The notes: a model not told the origin generated them from the sequence alone. A stretch of DNA of 64,000 bases from an uncultured candidatus Brocadiaceae bacterium (GCA_964538915.1 CAZIFB010000023.1:3294-67293), one strand, 5' to 3'. Counted from the first letter of the stretch, positions 44,011-58,715 are shown. Numbers and translations are program-made.

Positions 44011-44775
44011 ATGCGACCTTCCGAGCGACCCACGACGCCGCTCCTGCTGTCCGTCCTGGCGGCAGGGCTCTTCGCCGCCTCGGCGAGTTCGCAGACGCCT
44101 CCCGCGGCGCCGAAGGCGGTGGATCCCGCGCCGAAGGCGATCGAGCCGACACCGCAGGATCGGGCGCGCCCGGCGAACGCCACCGAGCTGTTCCGAGCGA
44201 TGGCGGCGATGCGCGGCCTCGAAGCGAGGTTCGAGGAGGAGAAGCACCTGCAGCTGCTCGCCGCTCCGCTGCACAGCTCGGGTGCGCTGTACTTCCTGCG
44301 GCTCGACCCGCGCGACGCGGGGGAAGGGCGCACCGCCGGCGGCTACCTGACGCGTGTCGTCGAGAAGCCCGAGCCGTCGACCGTGCGGATCTCGCCACGG
44401 GAACTGCGTGTGCAGAACCGCGACGGCACCGAAGTCATCGACCTCGAACGCAGCGACAAGGTGCGCACGTTCGTCTCGTCGCTCGTGCAGGTGTTCGCCG
44501 GCGACGAGGCGGCGCTGACGAAGGCGTGGTCCGTCGAGTTCGTCACCGATCCGAAGAGCGACAAGACCTGGACGCTGACGCTGTCGCCGCGCGCGGCGCC
44601 GCTCGACAAGACCGTGAAGAGCCTGCGCCTCGTCGGCGAGGGGCGCGCGATCGTCCGCGTGGAGATGCTGGAGCCGAACGGCGACCGCACCGTGACGCGC
44701 ATCGTCGGCGCCGACCCCGACCGGGCCTTCGACGCCGCCGAGCAGAAGAAGCTGTTCGGCATCGAACCGCGATGA
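44011..44775 (+). CDS. LolA-like outer-membrane lipoprotein-carrier-fold protein (ApeL-like)
   Basis: Signal peptide. FRAMAAMRGLEARFEEEKHLQLLAAPLHSSGALYF matches the LolA-family N-terminal pattern. Sits directly upstream of the MMPL gene. Confidence 0.7.
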   Translation: MRPSERPTTPLLLSVLAAGLFAASASSQTPPAAPKAVDPAPKAIEPTPQDRARPANATELFRAMAAMRGLEARFEEEKHLQLLAAPLHSSGALYFLRLDPRDAGEGRTAGGYLTRVVEKPEPSTVRISPRELRVQNRDGTEVIDLERSDKVRTFVSSLVQVFAGDEAALTKAWSVEFVTDPKSDKTWTLTLSPRAAPLDKTVKSLRLVGEGRAIVRVEMLEPNGDRTVTRIVGADPDRAFDAAEQKKLFGIEPR

Positions 44776-47168
44776 CCGGCGGCGAACGGCCGCGGCTCCT
44801 GCTCGGCGCACTGGTCCTCGCCATCCTGGGCGGGTTCGTCGCGCTGCGATTGCGTGTCACGACCGACATCACGCACTTCCTGCCGCACGGCGAACGCGAC
44901 TCCGACGTCGATCTCGCGCGCCGCATCGCGACCGGGCCGATGAGCCGCACGATGGTCCTGCTCGTCGACACGAACGACCGCGACGAGGCCGCCGCCGTCA
45001 GCAGGACGTTCGAGGCCGAACTGCGCGCGGAGCCGGCGGTCGCGATCGCGGCCGAGTCGATCGAGGGCGGTCCGCCGCCCGGCATCGAGGAGGCGCTGTG
45101 GTCGCTGTGGCACCCGCGACGTTTCGCGTTCCTCGCGGCGGAGACCGACGACGGGCAATCGCGGATCGGCGACGCACGCATCACCGCGGCGGTGGCCGAG
45201 CTGAAACGTCGCCTCGCTTCGCCGATGTCGGGGCTCGTCTCGCGCGTGGCGCCGAGCGATCCGTTCCTCGTGATGCCGCGACTCTTCGAACGCATGTCCG
45301 GCGGCAGCGGCGCCGGGCTCGCGATCGTCGAAGACCGCTTCGTCACGACCGACGGAACCGGAGCCGTGCTCTTCCTCACGACGCGCGCGTCGTCGTCCGA
45401 CTCGACGGCGCAGCGCCCGGTGCTGCGCGGCGTGCAGGACGCGTTCGCCCGCGTCGTGCAGAAGCACGGCCGGCACCTGCGCCTCCGGCGCAGCGGCGCG
45501 AACCGCCACGCGATCGCGGCCGAGGACTCGATGCAGGCGGACATGCAGCGTGTGTCGATCGTGTCGATCGCCGGCCTGCTGTCGCTCTACCTCCTGTTGT
45601 TCCGCTCCGTCCGCCCCGCGCTGCTGTCGCTCCCCGTCCTCGGCGCAGGCTTCCTCGCGGGCACCACCTCCTGCCTGCTCGCTTTCGGCGCGATCCACGG
45701 GCTCACGCTCGCGTTCGGCGCGTCCCTGCTCGGCGTCGCCGTCGACTACTCCCTGCACTTCTATGCGCACGAGGCGCTGTCGCCCGACCCGCGCGGCCCG
45801 CGTTCGACGCTGCGGCGGATCCAGGGCAGCCTCGTGCTGTGCACCGCGACGACGATCGTCGGCTTCGTCGCGCTGCTCGGCTCGACGTTCCCCGGCCTGC
45901 GCGAACTGGCTCTCTTCGCGGCCACCGGCCTCGCGGCCTCGCTCGGCGCAACGTGGCTGATCCTGCCGGCCCTCACCCGCGGCGTCCGCGTCACCCGCGT
46001 GAGCCGTATCCTCACCGGCGGCCTCGCTGCACTCGAAGACCGCCGCACGCGATCGCGGCTCTGGCTCGTGCTCCCGGCGATCGCGATCCTCGTCGCGACC
46101 GCTGTCGGCCTGCCGCGTGCGTCGTGGGACGACAGCGTGCAGAGCCTGAACCGCGTCGATGCGACCTTGAAGGCCGAAGACGACGCCGTGCACGCACGGG
46201 TCGCGCGCTTCGAGCAGCGGCGCGTGCTGGTCACCGAGGGCGCAGACGAGAACGCAGCGCTCACGAACTACCGCACCGTGGCGACGGCGCTCGCTGCCGC
46301 GAAGGACCGGACCGCGATCGCCGACTTCGGCAACATGGCAGCGCTGCTGCCGAGCCCCGATCTGCAGGCACGGGTCGACGCGGCGGTGCGCGGCGACGCG
46401 ACGCTGTGGCCGCGCCTTCGCGACGCACTCGTCGCGGCAGGCTTCAAGACGGAGGCTTTCGCCCCGTTCGTGGAGGACCTCGGCAAGCCGGCGCCCGCGC
46501 CGCTGTTGCCCCGCGATCTCGACGGCACGCCGCTGCAATCGCTCGTGCGGCCGTTCCGCCTCGACCTGCCCGACGGCACGGCGTGGCTCTCGTTCGTGCA
46601 GCGTGCAGAGCCGGAAGCGTTCGCGGCCGCCGGAGCGCTCGGCCCGCAGGCCCTCGGCGAACACACCCGCGTCATCGACATCGAAGCGACCCTGGCCGGC
46701 GCTCTCGCACGCTACCGGGGCAGCATGGTCGAACTGCTGCTGCTCGGCACGCTGGCGGTCGTGGTGCTCGTGGCGGCGAAACAGCGGCGCCTGCGCCCGA
46801 CCCTGCTCGCCTGCGCCCCTCCACTGCTCGCCGCGGCCGGTACGGTCGGCGTGCTCACGCTGGCGGGGGTGCCGATGAACCTGATGAGCCTGATGGCCCT
46901 CCTCATGGTCGTCAGCATGGGCGACGACTACGGCATCTTCCTCGTCGACGACGCCGACGCCGAGTCGCGCGACGCGACCCACCTGTCGGTGATCTCGTCC
47001 GCGATGTCGACGATCTTCGGCTTCGGCCTGCTCGCGATGTCGGACCAGCCTGCGCTCCGTTCGATCGGTCTCGTCTCGATGGTCGGCGTCGTACTCAGCG
47101 TGGTCCTGGCGCTCGCGACCGGCGCGCTGTTCTTGCCGGTCCGCCACGGTGCTTCGCCGGCCCGTTGA
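44772..47168 (+). CDS. MMPL/RND-superfamily exporter (ApeM-like)
   Basis: ATG 44772 overlaps the upstream stop (ATGA). C-terminal 798 aa of track ORF 43377..47168. Two blocks of 5-6 TM helices each follow a large soluble loop. Motifs GVAVDYSLHF and MGDDYGIFLV. Confidence 0.85.
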   Translation: MTGGERPRLLLGALVLAILGGFVALRLRVTTDITHFLPHGERDSDVDLARRIATGPMSRTMVLLVDTNDRDEAAAVSRTFEAELRAEPAVAIAAESIEGGPPPGIEEALWSLWHPRRFAFLAAETDDGQSRIGDARITAAVAELKRRLASPMSGLVSRVAPSDPFLVMPRLFERMSGGSGAGLAIVEDRFVTTDGTGAVLFLTTRASSSDSTAQRPVLRGVQDAFARVVQKHGRHLRLRRSGANRHAIAAEDSMQADMQRVSIVSIAGLLSLYLLLFRSVRPALLSLPVLGAGFLAGTTSCLLAFGAIHGLTLAFGASLLGVAVDYSLHFYAHEALSPDPRGPRSTLRRIQGSLVLCTATTIVGFVALLGSTFPGLRELALFAATGLAASLGATWLILPALTRGVRVTRVSRILTGGLAALEDRRTRSRLWLVLPAIAILVATAVGLPRASWDDSVQSLNRVDATLKAEDDAVHARVARFEQRRVLVTEGADENAALTNYRTVATALAAAKDRTAIADFGNMAALLPSPDLQARVDAAVRGDATLWPRLRDALVAAGFKTEAFAPFVEDLGKPAPAPLLPRDLDGTPLQSLVRPFRLDLPDGTAWLSFVQRAEPEAFAAAGALGPQALGEHTRVIDIEATLAGALARYRGSMVELLLLGTLAVVVLVAAKQRRLRPTLLACAPPLLAAAGTVGVLTLAGVPMNLMSLMALLMVVSMGDDYGIFLVDDADAESRDATHLSVISSAMSTIFGFGLLAMSDQPALRSIGLVSMVGVVLSVVLALATGALFLPVRHGASPAR

Positions 47169-47220
47169 CCTCGGGCCGAATCCTGCGCTGGCGCTGCACC
47201 GACCGGCGCCGCTGCGTATC

Positions 47221-47886
47221 GTGCGCGCCGTGCGTCCCGCCCGCTGCTTGCCGCTCCTCGCCGTCGCCGTCGCCGCTGCCGCGTGCACGACGACGCGGCG
47301 CACGCCGTTCGACGAGATGGAGTATCCGGGCGAATTGCTGCCCGCGCAGGCGGTGCCCGGCGACGTGGTCTGGCAACAACGCGTCACGGCGACCTGGGGA
47401 CTGGCCGGCGGGGAACCGGGCGAACGCGGCTTCGACGCGGCGATCCAGAAGCAGGGAGACGTGCTGACGGTGCTCGGCCTGTCGCCGATGGGTTCGGTCG
47501 GCTTCGCGATGATCCTGCGCGGGACGACGGTCGAGGTGCAGAACCACGCCGACCAGGAGCTGCCGTTCCCCGCGCGATTCGTGCTGCTCGACGTGCAACG
47601 CACCTTCTACCCGTGGCTCGGCGCACCGCTGGCGAACGGGCAGCGCACCGGCGTCGTCGGCGTCGAGGAAGTCACCGAGCGATGGGCGAACGGTCGCCTG
47701 CTCCATCGCACGTTCACCCGCCGCGACGGCAAACCCGCGGGCACGATCGCGGTGACGTACGACTGGCGCGACGACGACGCACGCGACCGGCTCGCGCCCT
47801 CGCGCACCGTGCTCGACAACGGCTGGTTCGGTTACCGCCTCGCGGTCGACACGCACCGAGAGACGAAGCTCGGTCCGTCCCGCTGA
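47221..47886 (+). CDS. DUF3261-like lipoprotein (ApeN-like)
   Basis: Track ORF 47149..47886. Preferred start is GTG 47221, giving VRAVRPARCLPLLAVAVAAAA|C (lipobox). Position after the MMPL gene is as in APE clusters. Confidence 0.6.
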   Translation: MRAVRPARCLPLLAVAVAAAACTTTRRTPFDEMEYPGELLPAQAVPGDVVWQQRVTATWGLAGGEPGERGFDAAIQKQGDVLTVLGLSPMGSVGFAMILRGTTVEVQNHADQELPFPARFVLLDVQRTFYPWLGAPLANGQRTGVVGVEEVTERWANGRLLHRTFTRRDGKPAGTIAVTYDWRDDDARDRLAPSRTVLDNGWFGYRLAVDTHRETKLGPSR

Positions 47887-49004
47887 TGGCCATCCGCGTC
47901 CACGTCGCCGGCCGCGGCGCGATCACCGGCTTCGGCCCGGGCCACCGCCGGTTCGTCGACGCGATCTTCGCCGGCGAGACGGCGATCCGGACGCGCGCGC
48001 GCACTGCTGCGTTCGCGGTCCCGACGAACGTCGCGGCCGAAGTGCCCGGCGATGCACTGCCGCCGGGCCTCGCCGGGCGCGACCACGCCTTCTGGTTCGC
48101 GATCACCGCCGCCCACGAAGCGCTCACCGAAGCGCGCGAACCGCCGCACGACCGCACGATGCTCGTGCTCGCGTCGACGAAGGGCGACCTGTCTGGCGTC
48201 GACGGCGCCGGCGACGGCCTCGGGCAGCCGTGGCGGCTCGGGGCGCGGCTCGCGCACGAACTCGGCATCGGTGGCGACGTGGTGAACGTGTCGTGCGCGT
48301 GCGCGTCCGGCCTCGTGGCGCTCGCCACGGCCGCACGCCGGATCGCGGCCGGCGAAGCCGAGCGCGCCCTCGTCGTCGGCGTCGACGCGCTGCACGCGTT
48401 CGTGATGGCCGGATTCGGTTCACTCAACGCCCTCGACCGCGAACCCTGCCGGCCGTTCGATCGAGCGCGCCGCGGAGTGACCCTCGGCGAGGGTGCGGGC
48501 GCGATCCTGTTGTCGCGCCATGCGCACGAGTCGATCGGCGCCGCCATCGTCGGACACGGCGGCGCCAACGACGCGTGCCACGTCACCGGCCCCGACCGCC
48601 AGGGCGCGGGCATCGCTCTCGCCGCCGCGCGTGCGCTCGCGAACGCGGGGCTCACGACACACGACGTCGACGTGCTGCACCTGCACGGCACCGCGACCGA
48701 GGCGAACGACGCGACCGAGGCGACGGGCCTCGCGCGCCTGTTCGGTGGCCGCACGCCGCCGGCCTTCGGGACGAAGGCGCAGACCGGTCACACGCTCGGC
48801 GCAGCGGGCGTTCTCGAGGCCATCGCCGCCATCGAGTCGCTGCAACGCGGCGAAGCGGCCGCGAACGTCGCACTCGCAGACCCGGACGTCGACGCGGGTC
48901 TCGACCTCGTCCGCGCGCCGCATCGCCTGCCGCGGGCGAAGACCGCGCTCAAGGTCGCGAGCGGGTTCGGCGGCGTGCAGGCCGCGGTGGTGCTCCAGTC
49001 ATGA
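47886..49004 (+). CDS. beta-ketoacyl-ACP synthase (KS, second copy)
   Basis: ATG 47886 overlaps the upstream TGA by 1 nt. Motifs NVSCACASGL, ACHVTGP, HLHGTATEAND, ASGFGGVQAAVVL. Confidence 0.9.
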   Translation: MAIRVHVAGRGAITGFGPGHRRFVDAIFAGETAIRTRARTAAFAVPTNVAAEVPGDALPPGLAGRDHAFWFAITAAHEALTEAREPPHDRTMLVLASTKGDLSGVDGAGDGLGQPWRLGARLAHELGIGGDVVNVSCACASGLVALATAARRIAAGEAERALVVGVDALHAFVMAGFGSLNALDREPCRPFDRARRGVTLGEGAGAILLSRHAHESIGAAIVGHGGANDACHVTGPDRQGAGIALAAARALANAGLTTHDVDVLHLHGTATEANDATEATGLARLFGGRTPPAFGTKAQTGHTLGAAGVLEAIAAIESLQRGEAAANVALADPDVDAGLDLVRAPHRLPRAKTALKVASGFGGVQAAVVLQS

Positions 49005-49654
49005 CGCCTCCCGTCGTCGTGGCCGCCGTCGGCGTCGTCGACGAGATCGGCATCGCGGGGAGCAGCGGTGTGCGCGTGTCCTGGGGCGATCTCGGCATCG
49101 CCGCACCCGGCGACGGCCGCACGTTCCGCGCCGCCTTCGGTCGCAGTGACGAGACGTTCCGCCGGCTCGACGTTGCGTCCCGCACGCTCGTGCTCGCGTG
49201 CGAAGCGCTCGCGCTGCCGGCCGTGCTGGCGCCTGACCGACGCGACGAGACGGCACTGGTCGTCGAGACGACGGCCGGTTGCCTCGACGCGGATCTGCAG
49301 TTCGCCGCGAGCCTCGCCGCGGCGATGCACGACGCGCCGATCTTCCCGTACACGTTGCCGAGCACGTGCCTCGGGGAAGTGGCGCTGCGGCACGGCCTGC
49401 GCGGCATCAGCACCTGCCTGTCGGTCGCACCAGCCTCCCGCGGGGCGGCGCTCGCCGAGGCGACCCGCCTCCTGACGAACGACGAGGCGCCCGCGGTCGT
49501 CGTCGCGAGCGTCGACGTGCTCGTCCGTCCGGATGCGCCGGCCCCGCGCGAGTGCCGGGCCGTGGCCGCGCTGCTGACGACCTCGGCGTCGGGATCGCGC
49601 GCCGTGGCGATCGCGCCGCTCGCCTGGTCGTCGCTGCTCGAAGCCGCGCGCTGA
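49001..49654 (+). CDS. KS N-terminal-like chain-length-factor-type protein (second copy)
   Basis: ATG 49001 overlaps the KS stop (ATGA). 217 aa. FPYTLPSTCLGEVALRHGLRG resembles the KS fold without the catalytic triad. Confidence 0.7.
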   Translation: MTPPVVVAAVGVVDEIGIAGSSGVRVSWGDLGIAAPGDGRTFRAAFGRSDETFRRLDVASRTLVLACEALALPAVLAPDRRDETALVVETTAGCLDADLQFAASLAAAMHDAPIFPYTLPSTCLGEVALRHGLRGISTCLSVAPASRGAALAEATRLLTNDEAPAVVVASVDVLVRPDAPAPRECRAVAALLTTSASGSRAVAIAPLAWSSLLEAAR

Positions 49655-49668
49655 TCGGCGCGGCGGCG

Positions 49669-52461
49669 TCAGCGCACTTCGAAGTGGTACGACCCGCCGC
49701 CGACCTGCACCTCGCAACCGCTCGCGTCGACGCCGACGACGTGCACGGCGCCGGCGGGCGGGCGGACGCGCCCGCGATCGACGAGCAGGTCGCCGCTCTC
49801 GGTCACCGACGCGTCGGGCCGCCCGAGCATCGGCACGACGATCGTCGCGTTCGTGTTCGCGGGAACGTCGACGTCGAGCGCCACCGTCGCTCCGCTTCGC
49901 CGCCACGACACACCGATGCGTCCGCGCACCGAGTCGAAGTGGCCGCGCGCCCACGTGAGATCGCCGACGACGGACGGCTTCACGACGATGTCGCGCCAGG
50001 CCACCGAACCCGGCGCCTGACGGATGCCGAGCAGCGAGCGACGGAACCAGGCGCTCACCGCGGAGTACATCGCGTGGTTGCGCGACCATCCGTCGATGCG
50101 ACTCCAGTGCTCCCACAGCGTCGTGGCCCCCTGGTCGAGCATGTAGCCGTACCCGGGGAACTCGCGGGAACGCACCATGCCGAGCACGAGGTCGTCGCGC
50201 CCGGCGTCGCTCAGCACTTCGAACATGTCGCCCGTCGCGAACATGCCCGTCGACAGGCGGCCGTGTTTCGCCTGGATCTCGTCGAGAAGCACGCCGAACG
50301 CCTTCTCGCGCAGTTCGGGCGGAACGAGCCCGTGGCGCAGCGACGTCGCCTGGCTCGTCTGCGTACGCACGAACACCTGCCCGGTCGCCGGCTCCACCTG
50401 GCGCGCGAACGCGGCTTCGATCGCGCGCGCGAGCGCCTCGAACTCACGCACGTCGTCGGCCCGGCCGAGCACGTTCGCGAGGTCGACGAGGATCGAGACC
50501 ATGCGGTGGTACGCGACGGTCGCCATCAACGGCGAGGGGTTGAAGCCGATGTTGCCGTGATCGCCGAAGCACGCGACCGCGAGATTCTCGGGGGAGCGAT
50601 CGCGGCAGAAGCTCACGAGCCGCCGCACCGTCTCGTACTGCTCTTCGACGAGCCGTCGGTCGCCGTACTCGGTCCAAGCACGGTGCACGAGGTACGGATG
50701 CGCGAGCATCCAGCCGAGCGGTCCGGTGTCCGGCGTGAGACCGCTCTCGTTGACGCCGACATCCGGCGCACATTCGGGCAGGCCGCCGTCGGGCCGCGCG
50801 TCGCGCGCGAAGTCCTCGACCGCCTTCCGGTGCATCGTCGCCATGTCGAAGACGGCCTGGTACGCGGTGGCCGAGGCGACCATGTCGCCGCCGTAGCCGA
50901 AGCGCTCGCGCGCCGGGCAGTCGGACAGCACCGACGACGCATTGCTGAGCAGCGTCCGCACGACGACTTCGTCGATGCGGTTGCACAGTGGATCGGAGCA
51001 CTCGAACGAGGAGACGCGCCGCAGGTCCGCATGCCAGACGAGACCCTCGATGTCGCCCGCGGCGAGAGCGTCGGGCAGACCGGTGACCTCGACGTAGCGG
51101 AAGCCGTGGCACGTGAAGCGCGGCTCGAACACTTCGCGGCCGCCGCCGCGGCAGACGTACGTGTCCTCCTGCAGAGCAACGGGAGGCGCGCCGGGACCGC
51201 CCTTGCCGGGTTCGTTCACCTGCGCCGCGACCGTCGAGGTCGGATCGATCGTGCCGTCGGGCCGCAGCTCTTCGGCGTAACGCAGCACGACCGCCGTGCC
51301 GGCCGGTGCCGTCACCGCGAGCCGAACCGCGCCGGCGAAGTTCTCGCCGAAGTCGACGACCTGCATGCCAGGCAGCGGGCTGGTCACCGCGACCGCTTGC
51401 ACCGTTCGTGACTGCCGCACGGGCGGGATCGGCAGGCAGCGCAGTTCGCCGCCAGGCGCCGCGACGACGTCGGCCCGCCGCCACGCGCGGTCGTCGAAGC
51501 CGGGGTCGTCCCATCCGTCGGGCCACGCCGCTGCAGCGAAGCGTTCGCCGAGATAGACGTTGTCGCGCAGCACGGGGCCCGGCGCCGTCCGCCACGAACG
51601 ATCCGACACGACACGCACGATCCGTCCGTCGCGCTGCACGACCTCGAGCACGCACCACAGCTTCGGCTGCCCGCACGCGAGCGTCGTGCGCAGGTCGAGA
51701 CGCCCCCACAGCCTCAGCGGCAGCGGGTCGTACCAGCCGCGGCCGAGCATGACGCCCAGAGCGTTCTCGCCGTCGTGCACGAACGACGTCACGTCGTGGA
51801 CGACGTACGGAACGACGGTCGAGTAGCGGGTCCACGCCGGCTGGAGGAGTTCGTCGCCGACGCGCCGGCCGTTCAACCGCGCCTCGTGGAAGCCGAGACC
51901 GCAGACGTATAGGCGGGCGCGCAGCGGCTCACCGTCGATGCGGAACGTGCGGCGGAGCAGCGGTGCGGGCCGGTCGCGGTAGTGGTCCTCGGCGCGCGTC
52001 GGAGCCTCCTGACCGTCGCCTATCCAGAGCGCGGCTCGATCGTTGGAGCGAAGGAGTCCGGTCTCGAACCACGTCGGCGTCGCGGACGCCGATTCCGCGC
52101 CCTCGGCGTTCCACGTGCGCACCGTCCACCAGTAGCGCGTGGCGCTCGCGAGCCGCGGCCCGCCCCACACGACGTGCAGGCTCTCGTCGCTCCCGACGCG
52201 GCCGGAGTCCCACACGTCGGGCTTCTCGTCGGCGAGCAGAGCAGGCGCGGTGGCCACCAGGATCCGGAACGCCGTCTGGCGGGCGCTGCGCGCCGCATCG
52301 ACGAACCGCCACGACAGCCGCGGGTTCTCGACGTCGACGCCCAGCGGGGTCGAGACGTACTCGCAGCGCAGGTCGGTCGGCGGTTCGCCGAGCGACGAAC
52401 TCCAGGGGAACGAGCACGCCGCAGCCAGCACGGCGAACGGCAGGAGCGACGACTTCCTCAT
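49669..52461 (-). CDS. GH78 alpha-L-rhamnosidase (lipoprotein signal)
   Basis: Start moved to ATG 52461 (MRKSSLLPFAVLAAA|C) inside track ORF 49669..53376. N-terminal LRCEYVSTPLGVDVENPRLSWRF plus QTAFRILVA is the classic bacterial rhamnosidase N-terminus. 930 aa. Confidence 0.9.
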   Translation of the reverse strand: MRKSSLLPFAVLAAACSFPWSSSLGEPPTDLRCEYVSTPLGVDVENPRLSWRFVDAARSARQTAFRILVATAPALLADEKPDVWDSGRVGSDESLHVVWGGPRLASATRYWWTVRTWNAEGAESASATPTWFETGLLRSNDRAALWIGDGQEAPTRAEDHYRDRPAPLLRRTFRIDGEPLRARLYVCGLGFHEARLNGRRVGDELLQPAWTRYSTVVPYVVHDVTSFVHDGENALGVMLGRGWYDPLPLRLWGRLDLRTTLACGQPKLWCVLEVVQRDGRIVRVVSDRSWRTAPGPVLRDNVYLGERFAAAAWPDGWDDPGFDDRAWRRADVVAAPGGELRCLPIPPVRQSRTVQAVAVTSPLPGMQVVDFGENFAGAVRLAVTAPAGTAVVLRYAEELRPDGTIDPTSTVAAQVNEPGKGGPGAPPVALQEDTYVCRGGGREVFEPRFTCHGFRYVEVTGLPDALAAGDIEGLVWHADLRRVSSFECSDPLCNRIDEVVVRTLLSNASSVLSDCPARERFGYGGDMVASATAYQAVFDMATMHRKAVEDFARDARPDGGLPECAPDVGVNESGLTPDTGPLGWMLAHPYLVHRAWTEYGDRRLVEEQYETVRRLVSFCRDRSPENLAVACFGDHGNIGFNPSPLMATVAYHRMVSILVDLANVLGRADDVREFEALARAIEAAFARQVEPATGQVFVRTQTSQATSLRHGLVPPELREKAFGVLLDEIQAKHGRLSTGMFATGDMFEVLSDAGRDDLVLGMVRSREFPGYGYMLDQGATTLWEHWSRIDGWSRNHAMYSAVSAWFRRSLLGIRQAPGSVAWRDIVVKPSVVGDLTWARGHFDSVRGRIGVSWRRSGATVALDVDVPANTNATIVVPMLGRPDASVTESGDLLVDRGRVRPPAGAVHVVGVDASGCEVQVGGGSYHFEVR

Positions 52462-54878
52462 CGGCGGGGCACCGCGGCGAGCGGCCGTCCATCGGCGTCG
52501 ATGTCGCGATCGACCGCCGCGAGGCACCGCGCGAGATGCGGATCGCCGTCGCGGCGCAACAGACCGAGCGTCACCGTCGCGAGCTGCGCGAGGACTTCGT
52601 CGATGAGCTCGGTGGCGACGCCGTAGAACAGGAAGTTGATCGGCGCGAGATCGCCGAGAGCGAGCAGCGTCCGCGTGCGACCCGACGCAAAGCGGAACGT
52701 CCAGCGATGGCCGTACACGCGCGCCGTGCGAGGGTCGAGCAGTTCGCCGACGCCGATCGCGACCGCTTCGCCGCCGATCGTCGGAGCCTCTTCGCGAAGT
52801 TTGCCGCCGAACCACGACATCACGTCGCGGAACTCGACCTTCTTCGTCGATCCGCTCGCGAGCACGAGCGCGGACTTCGTGCCGTGCAGGAGCCAGCGTT
52901 CGACGTCCGCACCCTGCACGACGCTCTGGCCCGTGACGCCGGTCACGAGATCCACGTCGAGCCACGCATCGCCGACGCCCGCCAGAGTGAGCGCCTCGGG
53001 AACGCCGGTGCCCCGTCCCCGCCCGGCCTCGAGGTCGACGCCCAGCACCCGCTGCTCGTCGATGCGGGGCAGGAGCGCGCGACAGAGTTCCGAGCCGATC
53101 GCGCCGCGCGAGCCGAGAACGAGGCAGGTGCGCCGCGCCAGGATGCGACCGTCGGCGTTCAGCACGGTCTCGACGGCGTTCAGGATCGACGCGGCGACCT
53201 CGCGCGACTCGACCTCGCGCTTCAGCCGCGAGATCGCGATCGAGAACGAGGGCAGCGCGAGCCGTCCGTGTGCACGCTCGACCTCGACGAGCCGGTCGAA
53301 GCCGTTGCGGGTGTGCTCGACGGTGCCGTGCAGCCGCCCCGCGAAGACGCTCTCCGCGGGACGCTCGTCGGCGCACGCGTGGCCGAGCGCCGCGGCGAAC
53401 GCGCGCACGCTGTCACCGCGCAGCATCGCGTCCTGCACGACGGGACCGAGGTAACCGCCGTCCTCGACGAGCAGCATGCGCTGCCCTGCGCGTTCGGCGC
53501 GGTCGATCTGCGCGAGAAAGGGAACGACGGCCGCGGCCCGCATCGCCGTCACGTAGGCATGGTCGTTGCCGGCGAGCGCACGTTCGATCGCAGGGGCCTC
53601 GTCGAGGCGCGAATACGCGTGCGAAGGGCGATAGCGGCCCTCGACACGATCGGCCGCCGGAACGTGCACGAGCGCCAGCGCGCGGAACTCGTCGGGCGGC
53701 AGGTCGAGCACGGCGTCGAGGTAACTCGCCGGTGGCTCGCCCGCGTACGACACGAACAAGCAGCAGAGGTCGCGGCACCCGAGGGCACGCAGGGCACCGA
53801 TCAGCCCGACGACCTCGGCCGTCATGTGGTGCACCAGGAAGACCGGCGTCGCGCGCAACGGCGCGTCGGCGTTCGCATCGACCACCGCCCGCAGCGCGGG
53901 CATGCGCTGCAGGAACGCGTCGACGTCGGGACACTCACGGCGCTGACCGATCGACAGCTCGAGCACACGTCCGAGCTGCGCCAGGTCGAGGAACACCGGG
54001 ATCGCTCCGGTGTCGATCCGCACGACCTCGCGGGCCGCGAGCAGGCGGCGCACGTTCTGGTCCTCGAGCGCGAGCAGCACGCGCTTCACCCGATCGGTGA
54101 TCTCGGACGGCGCGCTGTCGATGAGCATCGACACGGCGCTCTCCGGCCACTGGATCGACACCCGCTGGATCGCGGAGAGACCCGCCTGGTCGAACTGGCG
54201 GAAGAGATGGCTGTGCGGACTCCGGCTCTCGACGAACGAACGGCGGCCGCGTTCGGCCTCGCGGCGCAGTGCCTCCGCCCACGTCTCCGCGATGCGGGTC
54301 GAACCGGCGATGAAGTGGCGGTCCTCCGCGTCCGCGACCGGCACGTGCGCGATGCGGGCGATGTCGATGCATCCGACCGCACCGCAGTCGACCGTGAGCC
54401 GCAGACCGGCGGCGGCGGCGGCGCTCGACGGCAGGTGTTCGAGCACGACGCGGCGTCGGCCGTTCGTGCCGCTGAACTCCGCGACGAGCGCCCGCGACGA
54501 CGACCGATCGGCCGGCAGGAGCGCATCGCGATAGCGCTGCCGCTGCAGGCTGCCCAGCACTGCGCGCAGGTGCATCTCGAGGAGGTCGGGCCGAGCCACG
54601 AACTCGGCGACCAGCGCCGGTTGCACCACGAGGTGAACGACCTCGATGCCGAACACCTCGACCAGTTCGGGCGTCTCGCGTGCGCGGAGGCGGCGTTCGA
54701 TCGCTGCGTCGGGGCGCTCGCTGCGGGCGCGCACACCGATCATCTCGGCGAGCGCACGCGACAACACCGACAGGCCGTGCATGACGGCGAGCGAACCGAC
54801 GGCGAGGACCCAGGTGCCGTCGTGGCGTTCGAGCGGCGGGCCGATCGAGGTTTCGAGGCGGGCAGGGGCGTCGTTCAT
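52458..54878 (-). CDS. 806-aa hypothetical protein: unassigned ~330-aa N-terminal half plus very divergent adenosylhomocysteinase-like NAD-binding half
   Basis: ATG 54878 overlaps the upstream stop and its own stop overlaps the rhamnosidase ATG (both ATGA). By-eye parallels to AdoHcyase: LLVEDGGYLGPVV (53430-53474) vs DDGGD, VEHTRNGFDRL (53289-53321) vs EETTTGVxRL, LVLGSRGAIGSE (53088-53123) vs GYGDVGKG. Confidence 0.7.
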   Translation of the reverse strand: MNDAPARLETSIGPPLERHDGTWVLAVGSLAVMHGLSVLSRALAEMIGVRARSERPDAAIERRLRARETPELVEVFGIEVVHLVVQPALVAEFVARPDLLEMHLRAVLGSLQRQRYRDALLPADRSSSRALVAEFSGTNGRRRVVLEHLPSSAAAAAGLRLTVDCGAVGCIDIARIAHVPVADAEDRHFIAGSTRIAETWAEALRREAERGRRSFVESRSPHSHLFRQFDQAGLSAIQRVSIQWPESAVSMLIDSAPSEITDRVKRVLLALEDQNVRRLLAAREVVRIDTGAIPVFLDLAQLGRVLELSIGQRRECPDVDAFLQRMPALRAVVDANADAPLRATPVFLVHHMTAEVVGLIGALRALGCRDLCCLFVSYAGEPPASYLDAVLDLPPDEFRALALVHVPAADRVEGRYRPSHAYSRLDEAPAIERALAGNDHAYVTAMRAAAVVPFLAQIDRAERAGQRMLLVEDGGYLGPVVQDAMLRGDSVRAFAAALGHACADERPAESVFAGRLHGTVEHTRNGFDRLVEVERAHGRLALPSFSIAISRLKREVESREVAASILNAVETVLNADGRILARRTCLVLGSRGAIGSELCRALLPRIDEQRVLGVDLEAGRGRGTGVPEALTLAGVGDAWLDVDLVTGVTGQSVVQGADVERWLLHGTKSALVLASGSTKKVEFRDVMSWFGGKLREEAPTIGGEAVAIGVGELLDPRTARVYGHRWTFRFASGRTRTLLALGDLAPINFLFYGVATELIDEVLAQLATVTLGLLRRDGDPHLARCLAAVDRDIDADGRPLAAVPRR

Positions 54879-56323
54879 GGCCGCCCTCCGTCCGAATCCT
54901 CGTGCTCCACCACCGCCTTGATGCATGCGCGCGAACCGGCGACGGCGAACGCGCGCGCGAGGTCGGCCGCGGCGAAGCGATGCGTGACGAGCCGTTCGCC
55001 GATGCGTCGCAGATCCGCGTCCGCCGCGAGCAGTTCCAGCGCACGACGGAAGTCGCCGCAGCGCGAACTCGACAACACGAGGCCGCGCGCGACAACGGCC
55101 TGCAGCAGTTCCGAACCGGCGACCTCCGCCGTGGGCGTCACCAGGACGGTGCCGCGCGGCCTCACCAGCGACCGCTCGTCGCCCGCACGGGGCCTGATCG
55201 CCGCGTCGACCTCGGCGGCGTTCCCCGCCACGGCGACGGTGGCGCGCGGCAGACCCGTGGTCTCGCGGTCGAACTCCACGGCAAGGGCCGCCGCATCGCG
55301 TCCGGCGCGGACGTCCGCGGTCGCGGCGAGCCACGCGGGCGGCGGCGATGCGGCGAGCCACGCGATGCGCGGGCGCCCGCCGATCGCGAGCTGCTGCCAC
55401 TCGGACGCACCGGGCGCGGGCGGCCGATCCGGGAAGCGCGCGATCGAGAGTTCGTCGACGACGAGCGCCGTGAGGTTCGCGAGCCCGCACGACACGCGAC
55501 CGTGCGTCGACTTCAGGTGGACTTCACGGCGCGCGATGCGCACCGCGGTCGGGAGGCCCTCGGGGTTGCCCGTCGTGTCGATCACGACGTCGCACGACGC
55601 CTCGGGCACGCCACCGGCGGCGAGCACGTGCACTTCGTCCGCGCCGCAGGCCGTCGCGAGTTCGCGCAACGACGGATCGCGCACGAAGGCCACGACGGAG
55701 AAGTCCGCGCCCGCGCGGCGGCGCTCCGCACGCACACCGGCCAGCGCCGCGACGACGAGCATGCCGAGGCGGCGCGGTCCGAGCACGGCGATGCGGTCAC
55801 CTGCGCGCGGAGCGATCGAATCGACGGCGTGCAACGCAGCGGCGAAGGGCTCGACGAGCACCGCAGCGGTGTCCGGCACCACGTCCGGCACTTCGAGGCA
55901 CGCGTCGACCGGCGCGAGCAGCCAGGGACCGAAGCCGCCCGGCAGGCCGTGGATGCCGAGCGTCAGTCGATCGGGGCAGTGTGTGTGCAGCCCGGCGCGG
56001 CAGAACGCACACTCGGCGACGCCGCGAGCGTGGTGGGACGCGTTGATCTCCACCACGTACCGGCGACCGGCGTCGTCGCGCGCGATCACTTCGTGGCCGG
56101 TGACCTGCGGCAGCGGGAACGGCAGGTGGTGCCGGGCGAGATCGGTCGAACAGACACCGCACTGACGCGTCCGCAACAGCCGGTAGCCGGGGCCGAGTTC
56201 GAGCACGACCGCGCCGTCGCGCTGCACCGTCCAGCCGCGGTCGTTGCCGCGCAGCCGATAGTGCGCCGGCACGAACGTCGTGTCCTGCCGGTAGTCCAGG
56301 GCGTCGAACTCCACGGTGGTCAT
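54875..56323 (-). CDS. zinc-type medium-chain dehydrogenase/reductase (MDR) with ~110-aa insertion
   Basis: ATG 56323 overlaps the kinase stop (ATGA). Motifs RQCGVCSTDL, VTGHEV, LVEPFAAAL, degenerate Rossmann AVLGPRRLG. Extra segment ARFPDRPPAPGASEWQQLAIGG...VAVAGNAAEVDAAI. Confidence 0.8.
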   Translation of the reverse strand: MTTVEFDALDYRQDTTFVPAHYRLRGNDRGWTVQRDGAVVLELGPGYRLLRTRQCGVCSTDLARHHLPFPLPQVTGHEVIARDDAGRRYVVEINASHHARGVAECAFCRAGLHTHCPDRLTLGIHGLPGGFGPWLLAPVDACLEVPDVVPDTAAVLVEPFAAALHAVDSIAPRAGDRIAVLGPRRLGMLVVAALAGVRAERRRAGADFSVVAFVRDPSLRELATACGADEVHVLAAGGVPEASCDVVIDTTGNPEGLPTAVRIARREVHLKSTHGRVSCGLANLTALVVDELSIARFPDRPPAPGASEWQQLAIGGRPRIAWLAASPPPAWLAATADVRAGRDAAALAVEFDRETTGLPRATVAVAGNAAEVDAAIRPRAGDERSLVRPRGTVLVTPTAEVAGSELLQAVVARGLVLSSSRCGDFRRALELLAADADLRRIGERLVTHRFAAADLARAFAVAGSRACIKAVVEHEDSDGGRP

Positions 56324-57504
56324 CCGATCTCTCCCGGGCCGTTGCCGATGCGGAGGACGTCGAACGCCGGGTGCACACCGAAGCGCGCCTCGAACGCCTC
56401 GCCGACGCGGCGGCCGACCGACGCCGACGAACCGGGGCGCAGCAGCGCGATCGCACATCCGCCGAAACCGGCGCCGGTGAGCCGCGCGCCGAAAACGCCG
56501 TCGCACCCGCGCGCCGCGTCCGTGATGACGTCGAGTTCGTCGCAGCTCACGTCGAAGTCCGCGGCCGTCGAGCGATGGCTCGCGTCGAGCTGGGCACCGA
56601 GCGTCGCGTAGTCGTGGCGACGCAACGCGGCGACCGCGAACGCCGTGCGTTCCATCTCGGTGACGACGTGGCGCGCACGACGGAACGACACTTCGTCCAT
56701 GGCTTCGCGGCTCGATTCGAGTTCGGCCAGCGAATACGAGGCGAGGTGCGGCAGGTCGCGAACGTGCGTGCGCAGGATCTCGTGGGCGGTCGCACACTGG
56801 GCGACCCGCTCGTTGAAGCCGCTCTTGGCCAGGTGCCGCGGCTTCTTCGTGTCCATCACGAGCACTTCGCAGGCCTGCGGATCGAAGGGCACGTGCTCCC
56901 ACCGCGGCCCCGCACAGCGCAGCAACAGCACCTGGCCGGCCCGCCCGAGCGCCGACGCGAACTGGTCCATGATGCCGCAGCGGACGCCGACGAACCCCGT
57001 CTCCGCGCGGTGCGCGATCAAGGCGAGCTGCTGGCGATCCAGCCGGGTGTCGTGCAGTGCGTCGAGCGCGAGCGCGGTGACCACTTCGATCGCCGCGGAC
57101 GACGACAGGCCGGAAGCCATCGGCACGTCGCCGCCGAAGACGACGTCCATGCCCTTCGTGACACCGGTGCGTTGCTGGAAGCCGTGCCACACGCCGATGG
57201 GATACGCCGCCCACCCCCACTCCGAACGCATGCGCCGGCCCACCGCCGCGACGTCGAGGTCCACGGCGAGCTGCTGGTCCAGGCTGCGCAGCCGCAGGCG
57301 ACCGTCGGCGCGCGCAACCGCCGCTGCGTAGATGCCCCGGTCGACCGCCATCGGGAGCACGTCACCGCCGTTGTAGTCGAGGTGCGCACCGACCAGGTTG
57401 ATGCGCCCGGGTGCGAAGAAGCATCGCGGCAGCGCCCCGCCGAACTCACCGCGAAAGCGCCCGACGACGGCATCGAGCAGGGCGGGTCGCGTGGGGACGG
57501 ACAT
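56320..57504 (-). CDS. GHMP sugar kinase, galactokinase-like with altered signature
   Basis: Start set to ATG 57504 (track gives 57552). GRINLVGAHLDYNGG (57373-57408 covers GRINLVGAHLDY), GGDVPMASGLSSSAA (GHMP motif II), GARLTGAGFGGC (motif III). Confidence 0.85.
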   Translation of the reverse strand: MSVPTRPALLDAVVGRFRGEFGGALPRCFFAPGRINLVGAHLDYNGGDVLPMAVDRGIYAAAVARADGRLRLRSLDQQLAVDLDVAAVGRRMRSEWGWAAYPIGVWHGFQQRTGVTKGMDVVFGGDVPMASGLSSSAAIEVVTALALDALHDTRLDRQQLALIAHRAETGFVGVRCGIMDQFASALGRAGQVLLLRCAGPRWEHVPFDPQACEVLVMDTKKPRHLAKSGFNERVAQCATAHEILRTHVRDLPHLASYSLAELESSREAMDEVSFRRARHVVTEMERTAFAVAALRRHDYATLGAQLDASHRSTAADFDVSCDELDVITDAARGCDGVFGARLTGAGFGGCAIALLRPGSSASVGRRVGEAFEARFGVHPAFDVLRIGNGPGEIG

Positions 57505-57629
57505 GGACGAACCATCGAACTGGTGCGCAGCGTCCCGCGCAAGCCATGCCATCGCCCGATGCGGGCGCGGCTCGTTCCGGGAATGCCCGCGTAACGGCGT
57601 CGTGCGGGCGGGCTATACCTTGGGTGCGT

Positions 57630-58715
57630 ATGCCGAAGCTCTCGCTGACGACGATCACCGCCTTCCTGCTGCCGTTCTCCGTCGCCGTCGCGCAGGACAC
57701 TCCCGCGCAGGAAACTCCCGCGCCATCGGCGGCAGCCCCCGCCCAGGCGCCGCACCACGTCGTTCGCCGTTTCCCGCAGGACCGCGACGTCACGATCGCG
57801 ATCGTCGGCACGCGCGCGCTCTCGCTCGGCGATCTCGTCGATCACATCGACGCGAAGCACTACCCGGGCTTCCGCAAGGCCATGGAGACGCGGCCCGAGT
57901 TCCAGCGCATGCTGCAGTCCGACCTGATCGCGCCATGGGTGCGCCAGTTCGTGGACATCGAGGCGCTCCGGCAGACGGCGAAGCAGAAGGTCGACGAAGA
58001 GAAGCTGATCGCCGCGCAGAGTGCCGCGCTGAAGAACATGTTCCAGGGCTGGCTCGACTCCTACATCAACGAAGCCCGGTCGAAGGGTCGCCCCGACCCG
58101 TCGCAGCGCACGGTGAACGTGCTGCTCTCGGACTTCCAGCTCCGCAACGGCCTCGCGGCGGAGATGCAGGGCTGGCTCGACTACCTGGAGCCCGACGACT
58201 ACTCGCGCGGCCAGTTGCAGAAGTTCTTCACGGAGCACGCGCGCTACTTCGGTGGCCGCGTGAACATCCGGCACATCCTCGTGCAGAACCGCGACGCCGG
58301 CACGGGCATCCTGCTGACGGAGGAGGGTGTCGCCCGCGCCGCCGCCCGGCTGGCCGACATCAAGGGCCGCCTGCTCAGGGACGGTTCCAACTTCGAGGAA
58401 CTCGCCCGTCTCTACTCCGACGACACGAAGACGGCCCAGCAGGGCGGTGAGTTGAAGGGCATCCTGCGTTTCGACGATCGTCTGCCCGCGCCGCTCTGCC
58501 GCGCGGCGTGGATGCTCGAGGACGGCCAGATGAGCGACGTCGTCGAGACGCAGTACGGCTGGCACCTCGTGAAGCGCGTCGACTTCGACCAGAACATGTT
58601 CATCCTCTTCACCGACGACGCGATCCCGACGATCCGCGACGTGATGCACCGAGCCAGGCAGGAAGAGCGGCTCTTCGCGGCGCGCCACGACACCGAGCGG
58701 CAGCTGATGCTCTGA
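57630..58715 (+). CDS. secreted parvulin-type peptidyl-prolyl isomerase (SurA/PrsA-like)
   Basis: Start moved to ATG 57630 (MPKLSLTTITAFLLPFSVAVAQD). Parvulin domain: RHILVQNRD...FEELARLYSDD...GGELKGILRFDDRLPAPLCRAAWMLEDGQMSDVVETQYGWHLVK. Confidence 0.8.
   Translation: MPKLSLTTITAFLLPFSVAVAQDTPAQETPAPSAAAPAQAPHHVVRRFPQDRDVTIAIVGTRALSLGDLVDHIDAKHYPGFRKAMETRPEFQRMLQSDLIAPWVRQFVDIEALRQTAKQKVDEEKLIAAQSAALKNMFQGWLDSYINEARSKGRPDPSQRTVNVLLSDFQLRNGLAAEMQGWLDYLEPDDYSRGQLQKFFTEHARYFGGRVNIRHILVQNRDAGTGILLTEEGVARAAARLADIKGRLLRDGSNFEELARLYSDDTKTAQQGGELKGILRFDDRLPAPLCRAAWMLEDGQMSDVVETQYGWHLVKRVDFDQNMFILFTDDAIPTIRDVMHRARQEERLFAARHDTERQLML

Follow-up and report, generated by a model that had tools for sequence, protein, structure and literature searches.

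S-adenosylhomocysteine (SAH) hydrolase (SAHH, or AdoHcyase) works by transient 3'-oxidation with a tightly bound NAD, a chemistry that, to our knowledge, is known essentially from this one housekeeping enzyme and its close variants. SAHH is a homotetramer in which the C-terminal tail carrying Lys426 and Tyr430 caps the NAD of the neighbouring subunit. In mouse SAHH structures the adenine is contacted by Thr57 (N1), Glu59 (N6) and the backbone of His353, the 2'-OH by Glu156 and Asp190, the 3'-OH by Thr157 and Lys186, and the 5'-OH by His55, Asp131 and His301, and the Gly300-His301-Phe302 gate, which is completely conserved among SAHHs, lines the homocysteine channel (PMC4647836). Archaeal SAHHs carry a base motif that reads HxTxE in the adenosine type and HxExK in the inosine-preferring type, and the switch between the two changes purine specificity (bioRxiv 10.1101/2023.05.12.540488). 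Here we describe a gene from an uncultured candidatus Brocadiaceae bacterium, located in a stretch of 64,000 nucleotides that was analysed at its full length and is called the window below. It encodes an 806-aa protein, the target, in which a family-specific N-terminal domain precedes a C-terminal module with a predicted SAHH fold, and it directly follows a gene for a protein related to zinc-dependent dehydrogenases of the medium-chain dehydrogenase/reductase (MDR) type. In our judgement it is an even call that the target is an NAD-dependent SAHH-type enzyme that acts, with this MDR partner, on an adenosyl-containing compound other than SAH. The gene and its two parts are located as follows.

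52458..54878, minus strand: whole target open reading frame, 806 aa plus stop codon, supported by translation, codon GC, dN/dS and homologues
53925..54878, minus strand: residues 1-318, N-terminal family-specific alpha/beta domain, modelled separately
52458..53924, minus strand: residues 319-806, C-terminal module modelled with an SAHH fold (substrate-binding-like domain plus Rossmann domain)
54884..54889, minus strand: Shine-Dalgarno-like GGAGGG, read directly, within the end of the partner gene, its GGAGG box 7-11 nt 5' of the ATG

The open reading frame begins with ATG at 54878 and ends with a stop codon at 52458-52460. The target is a genuine, conserved coding gene, since GC at the third codon position is 0.88 and dN/dS is 0.09. 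GC at the three codon positions (0.77/0.49/0.88) follows the coding pattern of the window, which has a GC content of ~71%, and the long plus-strand open reading frames that overlap the target lack this signature. The dN/dS value was obtained with the closest relative, a 94% identical protein from a Planctomycetota metagenome-assembled genome (MAG; locus L007), and amounts to 0.13 in the N-terminal and 0.06 in the C-terminal half, indicating purifying selection on both.

A sequence-only reading of this gene had threaded the C-terminal ~470 residues by eye onto the AdoHcyase order of motifs. This order was borne out: all six quoted motifs are present (residues 343-367, 469-479, 518-530, 546-569, 585-602 and 643-654), and the fold was matched by Foldseek at E ~1e-15. 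The AlphaFold2 model of the target, built from a 38-sequence alignment, has a pLDDT of 88 and a pTM of 0.83, and when it was compared with the PDB, a check that the same reading had proposed, all top 50 matches were SAHH or SAHH-like structures (E 9e-16 to 8e-14, probability 1.00). These matches cover approximately residues 319-806, with target-normalised TM scores of 0.57-0.72 and ~15% identity over 480-550 columns. The extreme divergence from AdoHcyase that had been noted is evident both from this identity and from Pfam, where the sole meaningful match of the target, PF05221, stays below threshold (14.2 bits, cutoff 25); NCBIfam returned no match to the target, and phmmer of the target against the PDB reached an E value of 0.33. 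Among the family members, 25 of 38 matched PF05221 at E <= 1 (best 1.3e-5), and the top 23 matches of the family profile to PDB sequences were all AdoHcyases, aligned as two collinear stretches. The hhalign comparison of the family with human AHCY (a query identical to PDB 1LI4) was collinear over 381 columns, at a probability of just 19-29% against this single sequence, and therefore the homology claim rests on the structure comparison and the consistency of the matches. The resemblance to AdoHcyase is far beyond chance, and the C-terminal ~485 residues of the target have, as modelled, the SAHH two-domain fold. The substrate domain of the model additionally contains an extra beta-hairpin (residues 398-418).

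Target equivalents of SAHH residues were derived from the hhalign comparison with human AHCY, and their conservation was measured in an alignment of 47 diverse cluster representatives, down to 17% identity. The conserved motifs of the module are the following.

53814..53831, minus strand: HHMTAE, residues 350-355, the HxTxE nucleobase motif with H351, T353 and E355 (hhalign); T353 invariant, H350, H351 and E355 at least 90% conserved
53451..53465, minus strand: EDGGY, residues 472-476, equivalent of SAHH DDGGD (hhalign); E472, D473 and Y476 invariant
53301..53318, minus strand: EHTRNG, residues 521-526, equivalent of SAHH EETTTG (HMMER and hhalign); E521 invariant, H522, T523, N525 and G526 at least 90% conserved
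53208..53231, minus strand: SRLKREVE, residues 550-557, with K553 for the catalytic Lys186 (HMMER against 3gvp/6uk3 and hhalign); E557 invariant, S550 and K553 at least 90% conserved
53028..53114, minus strand: dinucleotide-binding signature, GSRGAIG (589-595) through GVDLE (613-617), aligned to SAHH GYGDVGKG and the Glu243 region; G589 and G595 invariant, G592, I594 and D615 at least 90% conserved
52842..52856, minus strand: SGSTK, residues 675-679, at the position of the SAHH N-I-G-H-F gate (global hhalign); S675 invariant, G676, S677, T678 and K679 at least 90% conserved
52608..52643, minus strand: hinge segment PINFLFYGVATE, residues 746-757, equivalent of SAHH LVNLGCAMGHPS (global hhalign, register +/-1); P746, G753 and E757 invariant, N748, F749, Y752 and V754 at least 90% conserved

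Residue by residue, the mapping reads as follows.

SAHH His55: target H351, identical
SAHH Thr57: target T353, identical
SAHH Glu59: target E355, identical
SAHH Asp131: target D473, identical
SAHH Glu155: target E521, identical
SAHH Glu156: target H522, replaced
SAHH Thr157: target T523, identical
SAHH Lys186: target K553, identical
SAHH Asp190: target E557, conservative
SAHH Asn191: target S558, replaced
SAHH Asn346: target N748 (probable, register uncertain by one), identical
SAHH Gly300-His301-Phe302: target G676-S677-T678, His lost

Six of the nine SAHH side chains that hydrogen-bond adenosine are thus identical in the target, one is conservatively exchanged and two are replaced; for the five ribose and catalytic side chains (Asp131, Glu156, Thr157, Lys186 and Asp190), three are unchanged, Asp190 is replaced conservatively and Glu156 is lost. 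The statement of the sequence-only reading that most catalytic residues are replaced was therefore too strong, and what stands of it is the loss of Glu156, of the gate histidine and of the tail. Thr158 and Thr159 of SAHH are additionally changed to Arg and Asn. The gate segment A-S-G-S-T-K (674-679) contains no histidine in either alignment register, and the target ends ~30 residues past the hinge helix in ...AVDRDIDADGRPLAAVPRR, a terminus with neither Lys nor Tyr and with no counterpart of the Lys426/Tyr430 tail. Most of the putative nucleoside pocket is preserved, and it is mainly on the side of the 5' substituent that residues have been lost. Because the gate reads Gly-Ser-Thr, Glu156 has become His and the Lys/Tyr tail is absent, it is improbable, judging by its residues, that the target is an ordinary SAH hydrolase. 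The cofactor loop, G589-x-x-G592-x-x-G595, is a GxxGxxG variant of GxGxxG, with the acidic D615 closing the second strand, and the model places a strand at 585-588, a helix at 593-602 and a strand at 611-614 around this site.

A census of the base motif among the gathered family proteins gave HxTxE in 191, HxTxD or HxTxQ in a few, and HxDxK in nine distant members. This split parallels the adenosine-type and inosine-type motifs of SAHHs, which argues that the ligand class is still the purine nucleosides, so that the substrate is probably a purine nucleoside derivative and not a plain sugar. The earlier proposal of an NAD-binding enzyme with a non-AdoHcy substrate holds in part, being consistent with the SAHH fold, the dinucleotide-binding signature and the lost gate; the sugar substrate towards which its operon argument points fits less well.

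The gene immediately upstream of the target is the second component of the system.

54875..56323, minus strand: partner gene, 482 aa, MDR/Zn-dehydrogenase-like, its stop codon overlapping the target ATG (ATGA, 4-bp overlap)

The partner protein matches Pfam ADH_N (1.6e-7, 31.9 bits, cutoff 23.5), and ADH_zinc_N was not detected in the protein of the window by the Pfam scan. In NCBIfam and the PDB it matches Zn-dependent polyol and threonine dehydrogenases, and it falls far under every NCBIfam equivalog cutoff. The catalytic-zinc motifs CGxCxTD, GHE and EP are conserved, a conserved G-P-R-[RK]-L-G takes the place of the GxGxxG glycine loop, the structural-zinc Cys lobe is not conserved, and an insertion of ~130 aa brings the length to ~480 aa. 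Given the replaced loop, any binding of NAD(P) by the partner may depart from the usual mode. A tblastn survey placed the partner gene immediately 5' of the family gene in 58 of the 75 loci with upstream DNA available, a pairing that spans the Planctomycetota and Leptospira; the sequence-only reading had proposed a neighbourhood analysis and had not singled out this gene, which proved to be the conserved neighbour. In five cases (P0015, P0094, P0102, P0109 and P0111) the two proteins are fused, and several such fusion proteins measure ~1280-1306 aa. A further apparent fusion of 1270 aa (L048) was discarded, its upstream part being an Arg/Pro-rich, out-of-frame artefact of the extension of a high-GC open reading frame.

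In the scheme that we favour, residues ~319-806 would form a highly diverged SAHH-fold module with one site for a dinucleotide, most likely NAD, and another for a purine-nucleoside moiety. The adenine would be held by His-x-Thr-x-Glu, the 3'-OH by Thr and Lys, and the 5' position by His and Asp. With the bound NAD+ as the oxidant of its 3'-OH, an adenosyl-containing compound other than SAH would become activated for C4'/C5' chemistry, be it elimination, addition or epimerisation, at a 5' substituent other than homocysteine. Compared with SAHH, three features are gone from the module: Glu156, the gate histidine His301, by which the homocysteine channel is shaped, and the NAD-capping C-terminal tail. 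The target would work with the MDR-type zinc-dehydrogenase-like product of the gene just upstream, probably in a complex with it, and the N-terminal 318 residues would serve as a scaffold or in partner docking. Tentatively, and with real doubt, we propose that the two proteins constitute an undescribed two-component enzyme that applies SAHH-type 3'-oxidation to a 5'-substituted purine nucleoside other than SAH; candidate substrates include an adenosine-linked sugar or nucleotide-sugar and a by-product of a sulfotransferase or a methyltransferase.

Several observations weigh against this scheme. The profile search that the sequence-only reading had proposed gave the sub-threshold PF05221 match and no match of PF00670 to the target, short of the curated AdoHcyase Pfam thresholds. 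The hinge loop 750-755 has the lowest confidence of the model (pLDDT below 50), and the residue mapping in the second half carries an uncertainty of one residue in its register. The MDR partner is absent from the vicinity in ~17 of the 75 assessable loci, some of which have an amidohydrolase or a PrmA-like methyltransferase instead. Every named member of the family is annotated as 'hypothetical protein', and the association with glycan clusters described below is not universal, several lineages showing unrelated neighbours.

The family is large. A word-indexed homologue search gave 163 matches, and an exhaustive search gave 819 cluster representatives at E <= 1e-3, of which 156 reach E <= 1e-30. 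In one-genome-per-species data, members are present in many Planctomycetota MAGs, in all Leptospira, pathogens and saprophytes alike (full-length identity 30-35%), in other Leptospirales and in scattered MAGs of Anaerolineales, Thermodesulfobacteriota and Acidobacteriota. RefSeq labels the Leptospira proteins 'hypothetical protein' for the target and 'alcohol dehydrogenase catalytic domain-containing protein' for the upstream gene, and a literature search found nothing relevant on SAHH-like proteins in Leptospira or on the target family. In L. borgpetersenii, a proteomic dataset contains an abundant canonical adenosylhomocysteinase, Q04NN6 (PMC9679693). The same species carries a member of the target family (ABJ76989.1), and this coexistence argues that the family is not the housekeeping SAH-recycling enzyme. 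A role in anti-phage defence was rejected, since PADLOC matched none of the target, the partner and the two flanking genes, and since in Leptospira the gene pair belongs to the syntenic core and not to a variable island.

Gene neighbourhoods vary among the lineages. Pathogenic Leptospira have GT4 and GATase_4 as neighbours, and saprophytic species have a NUDIX gene downstream. In a Planctomycetota sub-clade (L044 6455-11792 and L045 6242-12001), Amidohydro_3 takes the place of the MDR gene, overlapping the target start, and a class I/II aminotransferase gene lies downstream of the target. Among the Leptospirales outside Leptospira (L052, L054, L057, L064, L078, L079 and L084), there is no MDR partner; the genes directly upstream encode a ~595-aa conserved protein, a PrmA-like methyltransferase and a STAS-domain protein (upstream of the match at ~8001). 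In approximately nine of ~18 independent lineages, by our own tally, made without a background comparison and hence suggestive, the gene pair lies among glycan-biosynthesis genes, including GT4/GT2 glycosyltransferases, NTP-transferases, epimerase/dehydratases, DegT, GFO_IDH_MocA, Wzy_C and sulfotransferases. That the pair recurs in such clusters suggests a connection with nucleotide-activated sugars or with the cofactor by-products that arise when envelope glycans are modified.

In the window itself, a simple GC3-based gene call places the target in a minus-strand operon of four genes, galactokinase, MDR-like dehydrogenase, target and GH78 rhamnosidase, where ATGA overlaps, read directly at the junctions, couple the target to both of its neighbours. 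The outer genes of this operon are as follows.

56320..57552, minus strand: galactokinase gene, 410 aa, first of the operon, with GHMP_kinases_N/C and GalKase_gal_bdg domains
49669..52461, minus strand: GH78 alpha-L-rhamnosidase gene, 930 aa, last of the operon, with five Bac_rhamnosid Pfam domains, its ATG overlapping the target stop

The galactokinase gene exceeds the NCBIfam cutoff of TIGR00131 (270.5 bits, cutoff 226.65). Scans of 49300-58000 for promoter and terminator consensus sequences gave no sites, an outcome that is uninformative for a Planctomycetota genome. The sequence-only reading had taken this sugar-metabolism operon as a clue to function, and we rejected the galK/GH78 operon as a guide since the linkage is confined to one clade: galactokinase is upstream in just 12 of 79 genome loci, every one of them in a single Planctomycetota clade (identity at least 61%), and GH78 is downstream in just four of 79, all in the window's own clade. 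A looser link to sugars lies in the glycan genes of the lineages tallied above.

The same evidence bears on the possibility, which we hold to be unlikely, that the target is an NAD-dependent oxidoreductase or epimerase of sugars, sugar phosphates or polyols with no nucleoside in its substrate, working downstream of galactokinase or in nucleotide-sugar pathways, its pocket adapted to a pyranose or furanose ring. The local order of galK, MDR, target and GH78 with overlapping stops and starts would be natural for such an enzyme, the nearest relatives of the partner are polyol and threonine dehydrogenases, the glycan clusters include NTP-transferases, epimerases and glycosyltransferases, and the ribose-contacting residues could equally bind another cis-diol. 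But the galK and GH78 linkage does not leave its clade, and the base-specific Thr and Glu of HxTxE, together with the parallel HxDxK, are hard to explain without a purine.

Somewhat more improbable still is a non-catalytic role as a regulatory subunit that binds a nucleoside or NAD and controls or scaffolds the MDR partner, the latter being the real enzyme. Such a pseudoenzyme has a precedent in AHCYL1/2 (IRBIT/AHCYL type; 3mtg and 3gvp are among the matches), which have an SAHH fold, an N-terminal extension and no hydrolase activity; the loss of three SAHH features (His301, Glu156 and the tail) and the tight, sometimes fused coupling to the partner would also fit. However, the putative catalytic Lys, Asp and His and the cofactor loop are very strongly conserved between phyla, and this conservation extends to protists, in which the shorter relatives occur on their own and lack the N-terminal domain; the lower dN/dS of 0.06 is found in the C-terminal half. 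Moreover, the degenerate nucleotide loop is that of the partner itself, which argues that the redox cofactor sits in the SAHH-like module.

Quite improbable, finally, is a specialised true hydrolase of SAH or S-inosylhomocysteine (SIH) that, as a paralogue, clears a methyltransferase by-product locally, for instance that of glycan or protein methyltransferases encoded in the vicinity, since the retention of HxTxE, Asp131, Thr157 and Lys186, with Asp190 as Glu, the PrmA-like gene directly upstream in nine loci of Leptospirales outside Leptospira and the methyltransferases near family members in L088, L089 and L006 are set against a Gly-His-Phe gate that reads Gly-Ser-Thr, the change of Glu156 to His, the missing Lys426/Tyr430 tail, a sub-cutoff Pfam match at ~15% identity, the abundant canonical SAHH that coexists in Leptospira, and an MDR partner that this role would leave unexplained.

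The sequence-only reading had recognised nothing in the first ~330 residues, and residues 1-318 indeed lack a match in the PDB, BFVD, Pfam and NCBIfam. Modelled alone, this domain has a pLDDT of 91 and a pTM of 0.86, and Foldseek gave no significant match (best E 0.1 in the PDB and 0.011 in BFVD). It has just ~8 near-invariant positions among the 47 diverse members. Relatives of 570-740 aa carry the C-terminal module without it, including sequences in protist transcriptomes and genomes from Mastigella, Mastigamoeba and the foraminifer Nonionella (P0190, P0191 and P0224; EukProt: Nonionella stella, Mastigella eilhardi and Mastigamoeba balamuthi). Because it is weakly conserved and absent from shorter relatives, the N-terminal domain is probably an accessory, structural or partner-docking domain rather than a second active site. 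A nucleotidyltransferase or RelA/SpoT-like synthetase was considered and rejected, as a GS...DxD catalytic motif is not conserved; the recurring weak matches, to the small alarmone synthetase 5DED, TUT7, Pol mu, CutA and viral RelA/SpoT in the PDB and BFVD (probability <= 0.23 in the PDB, TM <= 0.21), are a faint lead at most.

Some members show further elaborations of the module. In one protist case it lies within an 1854-aa protein with an M4 peptidase domain, and in a distant relative (P0223) a true EF-hand pair is fused after it. The target has a DxDxDG-like segment, AVDRDIDADG (residues 788-797; 52488-52517, minus strand), that is conserved in Planctomycetota members only. A C-terminal DxDxDG calcium loop was rejected as a feature of the family, since Leptospira and protist members have just the (A/T)(V/T)D part.

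Elsewhere in the window, positions 2-4945 (minus strand, running off the window) encode a protein of more than 1648 aa with the unusual fusion of AMP-binding, PP-binding, Hexapep and membrane acyltransferase (HGSNAT_cat/Acyl_transf_3/DUF418) domains. The product of 22381-27549 (plus strand), 1722 aa long, is a multidomain protein that combines FG-GAP repeats, DUF7133 and HEAT with a cytochrome c motif and a 3-keto-disaccharide hydrolase domain. A gene run at 44011-49654 (plus strand) comprises LolA_3, MMPL, DUF3261 and two ketoacyl synthases, the second of just 217 aa; we presume that it resembles aryl-polyene-type lipid clusters. This run and the GH78 gene converge, with 15 bp between their ends. 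At 60301-62211 (plus strand) there is a gene for a 636-aa Eco57I/N6_Mtase-like DNA methyltransferase, with no obvious restriction partner within the window.

The fold and the general chemistry considered here are already known. The searched libraries and records hold no curated model or name for the family, its domain architecture, its partner or its distribution. What emerges is a large family without a Pfam or NCBIfam model that appears to have kept the nucleoside pocket and the key Lys, Asp and His while losing the homocysteine gate and acquiring a new domain and a partner, and that forms with this partner a core gene pair of the genus Leptospira, pathogens included, under generic labels only. 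The identity of the substrate would add a reaction to nucleoside and nucleotide-sugar biochemistry and a function for the Leptospira pair. If the two-component proposal is true, it would define a new envelope-glycan or nucleoside step common to Planctomycetota, Leptospira and, for the module alone, some anaerobic protists; a minor SAHH paralogue would be of modest interest.

Compared with canonical SAHH (AHCY/SahH; PF05221 plus PF00670; human 1LI4 and Bradyrhizobium elkanii 5M5K), the target shares the predicted two-domain fold and collinear motif order, the equivalents of HxTxE, Asp131, Glu155, Thr157, Lys186 and Asn346, with Asp190 as Glu, and the Rossmann loop with an acidic residue ending the second strand. 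Unlike SAHH, it falls under the Pfam cutoffs at ~15% identity, has His for Glu156, Gly-Ser-Thr for Gly-His-Phe, a GxxGxxG loop and no Lys/Tyr tail, and possesses the 318-residue N-terminal domain, the extra hairpin 398-418 and an MDR-like partner gene, with a canonical SAHH coexisting.

The archaeal SAHHs that prefer S-inosyl-L-homocysteine (Pyrococcus furiosus 7R37/7R38 and Methanococcus maripaludis 7R3A) resemble the family in that its base motif likewise splits, into HxTxE and HxDxK, whereas these enzymes are of ordinary length, retain the His gate and the complete set of catalytic residues, and are not known to pair with an MDR protein. AHCYL1/IRBIT and AHCYL2 (human 3MTG and 3GVP) also have an SAHH-fold domain after an N-terminal extension, and both are among the structural and sequence matches of the target, at 15-17% identity. 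The SAHH domain of IRBIT, in contrast, is ~50% identical to AHCY, and the IRBIT/AHCYL extension is short and disordered; these proteins are not known outside animals or with an MDR partner. Finally, the partner protein is similar to the MDR polyol and threonine dehydrogenases (4EJ6, RspB 4ILK and TDH) in keeping the GroES-like domain, the zinc-ligand motifs and the C-terminal MDR end, and it differs from them in its G-P-R-[RK]-L-G loop, its non-conserved structural-zinc lobe and its insertion of ~130 residues.

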